Shown here: positions 5,797 to 27,001 of the stretch, one piece after another
How positions within the stretch are numbered: the first letter of the stretch is position 1
Layout: the number at the start of each line of letters is the position of its first letter
From: Calothrix sp. MO_167.B42
GTDB lineage: Bacteria > Cyanobacteriota > Cyanobacteriia > Cyanobacteriales > Nostocaceae
Assembly (NCBI GenBank): GCA_030065255.1
Contig: JASJCX010000017.1
Span: 1 to 47,777 of the forward strand
Direction of reading: 5' to 3'
DNA length: 47,777 bases
Program-made: the position numbers and the translations under genes
Notes under the pieces: generated by a model
The model's database searches: none
What the model saw: only the letters and a program-made list of their open reading frames with translations
What the model was told of the DNA's origin: nothing

Positions 5797-8700
5797 ATGG
5801 AAGTTTATGTTTTTCCCTTAGCCAATGCTCAAAAGCGACTCTGGTATCAGGAGATAATCCAACCAGGTAATATTGCTTATAATATGCCCATAGCCTTAAA
5901 ACTGTCTGGTAAACTTGATATCCAGGCTATGGAATCGGCTTGGGATACTATTATCAATCGTCATGAAATTTTGCGTACCACTTTTGCGACGGAAGATGGG
6001 GAACCCGTGCAATTAATCCATGGAGAAATGGCATTTAAGATTGAAAAAATCAAGATTGCCGGAACCCCAGAAAATCAAGCAGAAGTATTAGAAAAATATT
6101 TAACAACAGCATCTTGTCAGCCATTTGATTTAGTCAAGGGTCCCCTAGTAAGGGTGATTTTATATCAAATTAACGAACAAGAGCATATTCTCTTGGTGAA
6201 TATGCACCATATTATTAGTGATGGTTGGTCCCTAGGGATTTTGGTGCGAGAATTCACCCAACTTTATACTAGTTATGCCCAAGGTAATGATATTGATTTA
6301 CCGGAATTGCCCATCCAATATGGAGATTATAGTCAATGGCAGGAAGAGCAGTTAAAGTCAGATGAAGGGATACAAAAACAGTTTGCATATTGGCAAGAAA
6401 ATCTGACACCACCACTACCAATTCTGGATTTACCTGTAGATAAAATCCGACCAGCAACCCAGACATATAATGGTGCAGTAGTCAGGGAATTATTCCCCAA
6501 TTCCCTGATTCAGTCGGGGGAAAAACTCGCCCTGGAATCAGACGCGACTTTTTTCATGGTTGCCTTGGCTGTTTATCAAGTACTGCTGTTTCGTTATTCT
6601 GGACAAACTGATATTATTGTCGGCAGTCCCATGGCCAATCGTCAACAGGTGGAATTGGAAAATCTGATTGGCTTTTTTGTCAACACCTTACCCCTGCGGG
6701 GGGATTTGGCGGGGAAACCGACTTTCCGGCAGTTTTTGCGGCGTACAGTGCAAACTTGTTTGGATGCCTATGCTCACCAAGATGTTCCTCTGGAAATGTT
6801 GGTGGAAAAGCTAGAATCCCAGCGGGATAAAAGTCGCTCGCCCATTTTTCAAACACTTTTTGCCGTCCAGAACGCACCCTTGGGCAAAATTGAGTTACCA
6901 CAACTCACGGCAACCTCCATGCGCTTAGATAATGGGGGAGCTAAATTTGATTTGACGCTGATTCTGGAGCCTGATGGGGACAATTGGCTGGTAACTCTAG
7001 AATATAATACGGATATTTTCAACCAGTCAACGGCTCAACAGCTACTCAGACATTACCAGCAGTTGTTAAGGGTTGTGGTGGATACCCCAGATGTCTGCAT
7101 TGATGCCTTGCCTTTATTTACCGATAATGAACGCCAGCAACTCCTAGCTTTGGGCGCTCCATCAGCACCCAGAAGTGAAGCAACAAATATCGTCCATTGG
7201 TTTGGCCAAACTGTGGGAGCCTATGGTGATAAAATTGCTGTCAAGGCTGGGAATGAAATATTAACTTATACTCAACTTGACCAACGCTCCCAGGAATTAG
7301 CCGGTTTTTTACAGCAACAAGGGGTGGGTACGGAAACCCGGGTGGGGATTTTCCAAGAACGGGATGGGGATTTAATTATATCCATCCTGGCTGTGCTTAA
7401 AGCTGGTGGTACTTATGTTCCCTTAGATCCAGTATATCCCCAGGAGCGTCTGAGTTGGATTATGAAAGATAGTGGTGTGGCTGCAATTATCACCAAGTCT
7501 GCATTGGTTGATGCCATACCTGGCGTTGCTGATTTCGCGCAAAGACGCAGAGGCGCAAAGGAGCAATCGGCTAAAAATGTAAATTCGTCCTCCATTGATG
7601 TCAGGCCAGAAATAATTGTTCTGGACAAAATTGATTTGGAAGTTGGGGAAGCGCCATTGGTGACTGGGGAAATTCGTCCGGAGCAAGCTGCTTATATTAT
7701 TTATACCAGTGGTTCCACTGGTAAGCCCAAGGGTTGCGTGATTCCTCACTGCAATGTAACTCGGTTGTTCCGCAGTACGGAACCTTGGTTTAAGTTTAGC
7801 CATGGGGATGTGTGGACGCTGTTCCACTCCTTTGCGTTTGATTTTTCTGTGTGGGAAATTTGGGGGGCTTTGTTATATGGAGGGAAGCTGGTTGTTGTTC
7901 CTTATTTAGAAAGTCGTTCTCCGTCAGCTTTTTGGAGTCTGTTGCAAGATGAAGGGGTGACTATTCTCAATCAAACTCCTTCTGCTTTCCGTCAATTAAT
8001 TCGGATAGGGGAAGAGGCAGGGGAGCAGGGAGCAGGGGGCAGGGGGAATGCCTCTTCCCAATTACGGACAGTAATCTTCGGGGGGGAAGCTTTGGAGTTA
8101 CAAAGTTTACGTCCTTGGGTAGAACGTTATGGGGACCAATGCCCGCGTTTGATTAATATGTATGGGATTACGGAAACTACGGTTCATGTTACCTATCGTC
8201 CCATTGAACTGGCAGATATTGAGGAAAATTGTGGCAGTGTCATTGGCGTACCCATTCCCGATTTATCCCTATATATCCTGGATGAGCGACTAGAACCAGT
8301 GCCCTTGGGAGTTACGGGGGAAGTTTATGTCGGGGGTATGGGGGTATCTAGGGGATATCTGAATCAACCCCAGTTAACGGCACAACGCTTTGTCCCCAAC
8401 CCTTTTAGCGAGCAACCAGGGGCTAGGCTTTATCGTACTGGGGATTTGGCTCGGCGTTTAATTAATGGTGATTTAGAGTACCTGGGACGGATTGATAATC
8501 AAGTAAAAGTACGGGGTTTCCGCATAGAATTGGGGGAGATAGAAGCAGCACTCGCAGCAATTCCCCAGGTGTCGGAAACCCTGGTAATTGCCTATGCCCA
8601 AGGTGAAGATGATAAACGTCTGGTGGCCTATGTTGTTCCCCATGGTACTCCCCCAGAACCCAGAGAGTTACGGGCGAGTTTAAAAGCATCCTTACCGGAT

Positions 8701-27001: not shown

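Follow-up and report, generated by a model that had tools for sequence, protein, structure and literature searches.

The stretch of DNA analyzed here (47,777 nucleotides; hereafter, the window) corresponds to one whole contig (47,778 bp) of the metagenome-assembled genome (MAG) Calothrix sp. MO_167.B42, and its proteins carry the NCBI accessions MDJ0674316-35. We propose, with a probability of about 0.72, that positions 118-27001 encode modules 2-7 of an approximately nine-module nonribosomal peptide synthetase (NRPS) line for a lipoglycopeptide of the hassallidin/balticidin/jagaricin type, in which module 2 is of a 2,3-diaminopropionate (Dap) type. The locus is a hassallidin-type core and not a hassallidin (has) cluster making a known hassallidin. 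The ring-closing Thr of this class appears to be replaced by a diamino acid, which is probably Dap, and the product is probably a novel variant of a known compound class.

Two NRPS genes of the window are complete, and both are present as described in an earlier reading made from the letters of the window (hereafter, the sequence-only reading). N1 is the open reading frame (ORF) at 5797-15291 (plus strand, 3164 residues) and N2 that at 15671-27001 (plus strand, 3776 residues); the NRPS upstream of them is called N0. In terms of condensation (C), adenylation (A), thiolation (T) and epimerization (E) domains, N1 is C-A-T-E-C-A-T-E and N2 is C-A-T-C-A-T-E-C-A-T. The modules, together with the two genes inserted between modules 2 and 3, are as follows, where Dhb is dehydrobutyrine and TE is a thioesterase domain.

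118-3373, plus strand: module 2, the 3' part of a gene for a 2768-residue NRPS; DCL-type C, A (DIWELTADDK), T and a docking tail (Pfam, C-A-T).
1612-2671, plus strand: replaced core of the module 2 A domain, containing all specificity residues; acidic pocket E278, D330 and D331.
3413-4417, plus strand: sbnA, pyridoxal phosphate-dependent enzyme of L-2,3-diaminopropionate synthesis (TIGR03945 equivalog, 401 bits against a cut-off of 350; NCBI name SbnA).
4425-5456, plus strand: sbnB, its NAD-dependent partner in L-2,3-diaminopropionate synthesis (TIGR03944 equivalog, 394 bits against a cut-off of 327).
5797-10476, plus strand: N1 module 3, LCL-type C, A (Thr, DFWNIGMVHK), T, E; predicted D-Thr or D-allo-Thr; boundary approximate.
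10477-15291, plus strand: N1 module 4, DCL-type C, A (Tyr, DASTIAAVCK), T, E; predicted D-Tyr.
15671-19165, plus strand: N2 module 5, DCL-type C, A (Thr, DFWNIGMVHK), T; predicted Dhb precursor.
19166-23740, plus strand: N2 module 6, special-subtype C (DAYPLGQLQAGMLFES, HHAILDG), A (DGWQLGILNK), T, E; predicted D-configured Gln-like residue.
23741-27001, plus strand: N2 module 7, DCL-type C, A (Gly-like, DILQFGVIWK), T, C-terminal docking tail; no TE.

Domain architectures were determined from Pfam and core-motif mapping, and the ten Stachelhaus positions were read from alignments of the A domains to GrsA-PheA (the numbering of the reference sequence checks out). Our own extraction reproduced exactly the five pocket codes that the sequence-only reading had assigned to N1 and N2 (DFWNIGMVHK, DASTIAAVCK, DFWNIGMVHK, DGWQLGILNK and DILQFGVIWK) and left its calls of Thr, Tyr, Thr, Gln-like and Gly unchanged. 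Four of the five codes are canonical, that of module 6 being the exception; by pairwise alignment, the shift of one gap turned the last code into DILQLAVIWK, which is still Gly-like. The E domains that had been placed after the first Thr (Thr3), Tyr4 and the Gln-like module were confirmed by the E1 motif PIQxWF and by HHxxxDG (at approximately residues 1234 and 2820 of N1 and residue 2372 of N2), and modules 5 and 7 contain none. The C-domain N-termini were also found as quoted. MEVYVFPLANAQKRLW (FPLANAQKRLW) opens N1, after the E-less module encoded at 118-3373, and NIYPLSPLQEGVLFH, DIYPLSPMQEGMLFH, NIFPLTPLQKGLLFH and DIYPLAPVQEGMVFH are the N-termini of C domains that follow one after each E domain, with the start pattern (N/D)I(Y/F)PL(S/T/A)P.Q.G..FH.

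The best match of N2 among 72,556 plasmids was found on plasmid1 of Aulosira laxa NIES-50, whose cluster has been curated as a hassallidin cluster (PMC8600333). The Aulosira genes and their modules are as follows.

Gene 68470: Thr-Thr, modules 1-2.
Gene 68390 (NIES50_68390, hereafter Aul390): Thr-E, Tyr-E, modules 3-4.
Gene 68400 (NIES50_68400, hereafter Aul400): Thr, Gln-E, Gly, modules 5-7.
Gene 68340: Thr-methyltransferase (MT), Gln, modules 8-9.

N1 and Aul390 were colinear over the full length at 58.0% identity (3164 residues), as were N2 and Aul400 at 58.5% (3230 residues); non-cognate NRPS pairings gave 30-40%. For 13 out of 13 domains of N1 and N2 (eight C or E domains and five A cores), the positional counterpart was the best match, with 48-70% identity compared with at most 43% for other domains. 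The positional best matches were 63% (C), 65% (A) and 48% (E) in module 3, 63%, 59% and 54% in module 4, and 66% (C) and 70% (A) in module 5, and the A core of module 7 was 63-68% identical to its Gly7 counterparts. At their C termini, N0, N1 and N2 carry tails similar to the ones in the matching Aulosira proteins, and the N2 tail, GRTEKI..AFLRMKQMTPE.KA.LL, is conserved both in Aul400 and in three metagenome homologs of N2 (L087-L089), which have the same architecture at 57-61% identity. In one of these, L088, an epimerase gene (84%) and an MFS gene (69%) lie 3' of the N2 homolog, as in the window. By sequence comparison, N1 and N2 are shown to be positional orthologs of has-type modules 3-7. 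The residue order and the E-domain positions of hassallidin and jagaricin have been described (PMC12077216), and the hassallidin order given in the sequence-only reading agrees with that description. With the same codes, similarity to and synteny with has-type genes and a correct residue order, the hassallidin/balticidin-like core that it had proposed is supported.

The C domain that follows the E-less Thr5 module, beginning DAYPLGQLQAGMLFES, belongs to a third subtype, neither of the two to which the sequence-only reading had assigned the C domains. It shares 55% identity with its counterpart in Aul400, and no other C domain in the set exceeds 34%. Specialized C domains that dehydrate Ser or Thr are known (PMC12077216). 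Since a distinct subtype is shared with the has counterpart, the domain can reasonably be regarded as a candidate for the dehydration of Thr5 to Dhb. Besides the positional counterpart, its nearest relative (34%) is the C domain between Thr1 and Thr2 in Aulosira NIES50_68470 (L002, 34129-40557), which starts with ADAYPLSSLQAGMLYH; this hints at a possible second dehydration in the Aulosira cluster.

Module 2 was compared with a sister cluster from MAG Nostocaceae MO_167.B47 (L003 and L004; JASJCY010000004.1), which comes from the same sample series as the window and is 74-84% identical to it. The sister NRPSs are 74% identical to N0 over the whole protein (82% over the first 2000 residues, P0135) and 73% identical to N1. 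Along N0, the protein identity between the window and the sister is 80-90% except in the A core of module 2, where it falls to 20-38%, and the DNA alignment stops at 1612 and restarts at 2671. The sister core (DVWNIAMVHK) is 62% identical to the Thr2 A core of the Aulosira has cluster, so that a Thr-type core is ancestral. For the window core, no member of the has-type comparison set exceeds 38% identity. Its best plasmid match (50.8%) is an A domain of Methylocystis bryophila with the pocket DIWELCADDK, whose cluster also contains a diaminobutyrate-2-oxoglutarate transaminase and a TonB siderophore receptor. This locus (L167, plasmid pDSM21852-1, 62839-109644) comprises a large cluster of NRPS and polyketide synthase (PKS) genes with the 2,4-diaminobutyrate (Dab) transaminase, an MbtH protein, a TauD-family dioxygenase and the TonB receptor, and it looks like a plasmid-borne Dab-using siderophore cluster. 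When the swapped A core was run against the whole library with HMMER, the outcome was of no help, as giant multi-A proteins filled the ranking.

A second difference from the sister lies immediately downstream. The genes sbnA and sbnB are adjacent (8 nt apart), both pass the NCBIfam equivalog thresholds, and the cassette that contains them (3384-5768, 2.39 kb) stands in place of 74 nt of the intergenic spacer of the sister, in which the N1 homolog follows the upstream NRPS after 120 nt with no sbnAB. The sequence-only reading had called the Dap genes extra. They are not incidental, as they accompany the replaced A core just upstream. Judged by its predicted specificity residues, the pocket of module 2 is of a short diamino-acid type, and because the supply genes inserted beside module 2 make Dap, this substrate is favored over Dab. 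SbnA and SbnB homologs are rare in cyanobacteria (PMC9414260).

The left end of the window carries an artifact, and N0 begins beyond it. The feature concerned is the following.

1-117, no strand assigned: fold-back artifact at the contig end, 100% reverse-complementary to 198-314 and absent from the ENA assembly L001.

L001, an independent ENA assembly of the same organism, is identical to window positions 111-10160, contains no fold-back and extends the NRPS reading frame upstream of the left end of the window. Both a stop codon and the ORF start at position 80 are false products of the fold-back. The left end is therefore an assembly artifact, and the ORF at 80-3373 is the tail of a longer gene; a stand-alone C-A-T protein for this ORF was considered and rejected. 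The full N0 gene lies at L001 1655-9961 (2768 residues) and encodes, in order, a TubC-type docking domain, C, A (DALWLGGTCK, Val-like), T, E, DCL-type C, A (DIWELTADDK) and T. A PKS precedes it in L001; a search with the 551-residue C-terminal PKS fragment matched only short proteins with ketoreductase (KR) and acyl carrier protein (ACP) domains, and not the 1823-residue gene. The first two modules accordingly depart from the has pattern of Thr-Thr acylated via FAAL, ACP and starter C domain: the Val-like module 1 includes an E domain, the code of module 2 is DIWELTADDK, and a PKS of the order KS-AT-DH-KR-ACP and a docking domain lie upstream.

The corresponding start was also read in the sister. 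Upstream of its NRPS genes lie, in order, a DXD glycosyltransferase, two P450s, a CmlA-like beta-hydroxylase, a UDP-glycosyltransferase, a FAAL, an ACP, a CylC-like halogenase and a KS-AT-DH-KR-ACP PKS. The P450s, the CmlA-like diiron beta-hydroxylase and the CylC-like halogenase span positions 2732-13812 of L004. Balticidins contain a hydroxy-Tyr. Their fatty acid is chlorinated (PMC10300848), and the halogenase and beta-hydroxylase of the sister would agree with two traits of these compounds, a chlorinated lipid and a beta-hydroxy-Tyr. The same order of FAAL, CylC-like and PKS genes was observed in an uncultured cyanobacterium (MFD03044, L005), Scytonema sp. PMC 1070.18 (L006) and Nostocaceae CCAP1427 (L007), with FAAL identities of 68-85%. 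The PKS-initiated family may be more widespread, the NRPS parts of these three lying outside the fetched loci.

Hassallidins comprise nine residues, eight of them in an esterified ring, and residue 1 is exocyclic and acylated (PMC10300848 for part of this description). It follows that their ring closes on the side chain of residue 2 (Thr), and that Dap at this position would give a lactam. According to our proposal, a KS-AT-DH-KR-ACP PKS would hand its acyl chain to the docking-domain NRPS, a Val-like residue would be added and then epimerized, and module 2 would load L-Dap made by SbnA and SbnB. Modules 3-7 would then add D-Thr, D-Tyr, Thr (converted to Dhb), a D-configured Gln-like residue and Gly, and the docking tail of N2 would pass the chain to a separate protein with the remaining modules and the TE. 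Closure of the ring by this terminal TE on the beta-amine of Dap would yield a macrolactam rather than a macrolactone. More tentatively, and with a little less than even confidence, we suggest that the line was recently re-engineered in nature: the A core of Thr2 would have been replaced by a foreign diamino-acid core together with the insertion of sbnAB, the product would be a hydrolysis-resistant, Dap-closed macrolactam analog, and the unmodified sister would be the one found in the same sample.

Several points weigh against the proposed Dap-type assembly line. The pocket DIWELTADDK is identical at nine of ten positions to one that is tied to a Dab-supply gene and not to a Dap-supply gene. 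The source is a MAG with one proven assembly artifact at a contig end, and the pathway could be split across contigs, or broken, given that the window, the adjoining 1.7 kb on its right and the 10 kb upstream of the FAAL of the sister yielded no gene for modules 8-9 or a TE; this negative covers the window and these flanks and not the rest of the genome. Ring closure through Dap is a step that we infer. The has reference in our alignments consisted of the Aulosira proteins and the metagenome homologs of N2, in place of HasN, HasO, HasV and HasY of Anabaena. Furthermore, the pocket of module 6 (DGWQLGILNK) differs at five of ten positions from DAWQFGLIDK, which is common to all four homologs, so that residue 6 is possibly not Gln and the specificity may have shifted.

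As for module 6, four canonical Gln6 A cores match its A core at 58-62% identity. An A-core swap like that in module 2 was rejected here, because this identity holds along the whole length with no local drop; the altered pocket thus arose by point changes. With an orthologous core and a non-canonical pocket, the label of tentatively Gln-like in the sequence-only reading was set at an apt level.

Among the alternatives, the one that survives best holds that module 2 loads L-2,4-diaminobutyrate made elsewhere in the genome and that SbnA and SbnB have some other role, with no further change to the model. This alternative draws on the nearest annotated relative of the A core, with its pocket DIWELCADDK beside a diaminobutyrate-2-oxoglutarate transaminase, and on DIWELTADDK itself, which we take to be the Dab signature of Pseudomonas synthetases (a literature search for the pocket strings found nothing). 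However, the window contains no Dab-supply gene, and sbnAB lies exactly between modules 2 and 3, in the only cluster with a replaced A core. The rarity of SbnA and SbnB homologs in cyanobacteria also weighs against this alternative (PMC9414260). We therefore regard loading of Dab as unlikely, if still a serious competitor, and retain Dap as the favored substrate of module 2.

A second alternative is that the locus is an incomplete or decaying remnant that has lost its terminal modules and TE and makes no cyclic product. Neither modules 8-9 nor a TE was present in the 47.8 kb or the available flanks, so that the contiguity of the NRPS genes noted in the sequence-only reading holds for modules 2-7 and not for modules 8-9 and the TE; a search downstream of the metagenome N2 homologs found none for this genome, and the 1.7 kb to the right of the window encode a histidine kinase. 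Natural inactivation of a has cluster has, moreover, been documented in Anabaena sp. 90 (PMC3542288). By contrast, all NRPS ORFs are intact with complete core motifs, and the docking tail of N2 is conserved. Known has clusters are likewise split into several operons, so that absence from this contig is weak evidence of loss, and the MAG is fragmented, so that the absence from any one contig says little. A decayed locus thus appears unlikely, and a functional line continued on another protein remains our preferred reading.

It could also be supposed that the window carries an ordinary hassallidin or balticidin cluster for an already known compound, which would account for the order of modules 3-7 and for the glycosyltransferase and acetyltransferase genes. 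Yet in place of Thr-Thr the line has a Val-like module 1 with an E domain and a module 2 of the diamino-acid type; a PKS and a docking domain stand where has uses a FAAL to feed a starter C domain (PMC10088813); and the Gln pocket is non-canonical. In addition, the proteins that were looked up (including SbnA, SbnB, N1 and N2) were singletons or nearly so in the 90%-identity clustering of approximately 15 billion proteins. We consider this explanation very improbable. That the likeness to has is no more than general similarity among NRPSs, with an unrelated product, is hardly credible. All NRPS modules are 30-40% identical to one another, and codes for Thr and Gly are frequent, but 58% colinear identity over 3164 and 3230 residues, 13/13 positional best matches, conserved docking tails and syntenic epimerase and MFS genes are not explained in this way.

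The genes that follow N2 are candidates for tailoring and export. Together with the repeats inside N2, they are listed below.

17003-17310, plus strand: in-frame heptanucleotide tandem repeats (Tandem Repeats Finder), giving a repetitive insert of approximately 100 residues in the C-A linker of module 5.
27064-28125, plus strand: NAD-dependent sugar epimerase/dehydratase, likely for nucleotide-sugar supply (Pfam PF01370; 84% to the gene right after the N2 homolog of L088).
28589-29845, plus strand: MGT-family (GT1) glycosyltransferase (TIGR01426, 292 bits against a cut-off of 260).
30129-31475, plus strand: MFS transporter (Pfam MFS_1; 69% to the MFS gene downstream of the N2 homolog of L088).
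31752-32363, plus strand: hexapeptide-repeat O-acetyltransferase, candidate sugar acetylase and candidate cluster member (Pfam Hexapep; sub-threshold NCBIfam matches WbbJ, LacA and WcaF).
32404-41916, minus strand: GT2, two GT4, a histidine phosphatase, an ABC exporter and two GT28-like glycosyltransferases (Pfam).

The window has six GT-family genes and one hexapeptide-repeat acetyltransferase gene, possible counterparts of HasD/Q/T/X and HasR. The Aulosira has region contains no homolog of any of these putative tailoring genes, and synteny with another has-type locus (L088) was shown only for the epimerase and MFS genes. The block on the minus strand (32404-41916) may belong to the cluster; neither the Aulosira has region nor L088 yielded a homolog of it. 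The right flank (42465-47777), together with L086, encodes an OprB-family porin (NCBI name, iron uptake porin), an RRXRR-HNH endonuclease, two response regulators and a histidine kinase, and is probably outside the cluster.

The insert of approximately 100 residues in the module 5 linker (YREQEIGNR.../QPSTVNH...) is not present in Aul400. Further heptanucleotide arrays occur both between genes and inside NRPS coding sequences (10195-10228, 18479-18512, 5460-5490, 15298-15338 and 15587-15616), the repeat units being AGGGAAC (approximately 30 copies), AACCGTC (approximately 14) and CAAAATC (approximately 5). The ENA contig breaks near the repeat at 10195.

Hassallidins, balticidins and jagaricins are potent membrane-active antifungal lipoglycopeptides, the ring of which is held by a labile ester. 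If our reading is true, the swap of Thr for Dap in the ring would represent a natural lactam analog, like those that chemists have synthesized to stabilize depsipeptides. The pair of clusters, separated by one A-core replacement and one supply cassette, would offer an unusually clean natural example for NRPS engineering, showing both the natural recombination junctions and the tolerance of the downstream C domain to the change. Given the rarity of SbnA and SbnB in cyanobacteria, the locus would also tie them to a concrete use of 2,3-Dap, a point that bears on the debate over where BMAA (beta-N-methylamino-L-alanine) comes from.

Compared with the hassallidin synthetases (Anabaena sp. SYKE748A, Cylindrospermopsis, Planktothrix serta and the Aulosira variant), the window line has the same domain order in modules 3-7 (C-A-T-E, C-A-T-E, C-A-T, C-A-T-E, C-A-T), the same Thr, Tyr, Thr and Gly codes, E domains in modules 3, 4 and 6, a special C domain after Thr5, conserved docking tails and glycosyltransferase genes nearby. 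It differs in that module 1 is Val-like with an E domain and not Thr, that module 2 has a foreign, acidic-pocket A core with sbnAB and not Thr, and that the pocket of module 6 is DGWQLGILNK and not DAWQFGLIDK; modules for NMeThr8 and residue 9 and a TE were not found. The lipid of the window line enters via a PKS module and a docking domain, whereas in canonical has initiation an acyl-ACP made by the FAAL goes straight to a starter C domain (PMC10088813).

The jagaricin and Sch 20561 synthetases (jag and hml; Janthinobacterium and Chromobacterium) are proteobacterial, receive a 3-hydroxy fatty acid via a starter C domain and use no Dap. Balticidins (Anabaena cylindrica Bio33) have the hassallidin-type core in common with the window line. 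They start with Thr-Thr-Thr and are not known to contain Val or Dap, in contrast to the Val-like and diamino-acid modules described here, a difference seen at the level of the compounds. Recombination of A-domain cores in cyanobacteria, for example in the mcyB and mcyC variants of microcystin, likewise produces an abrupt, domain-limited loss of identity and changes one residue. Unlike those variants, the swap in the window is coupled to the insertion of two precursor-supply genes and affects the ring-forming residue. Finally, lipopeptides of the amphomycin type (friulimicin and laspartomycin), like other peptides whose rings close on Dap or Dab, carry their acyl chain on an exocyclic residue 1, and position 2 is taken by Dab or Dap, the side-chain amine of which closes the macrolactam. 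This is the same topology as that proposed here; the actinomycete NRPS family and the peptide sequence are unrelated, and the likeness is one of mechanism only.

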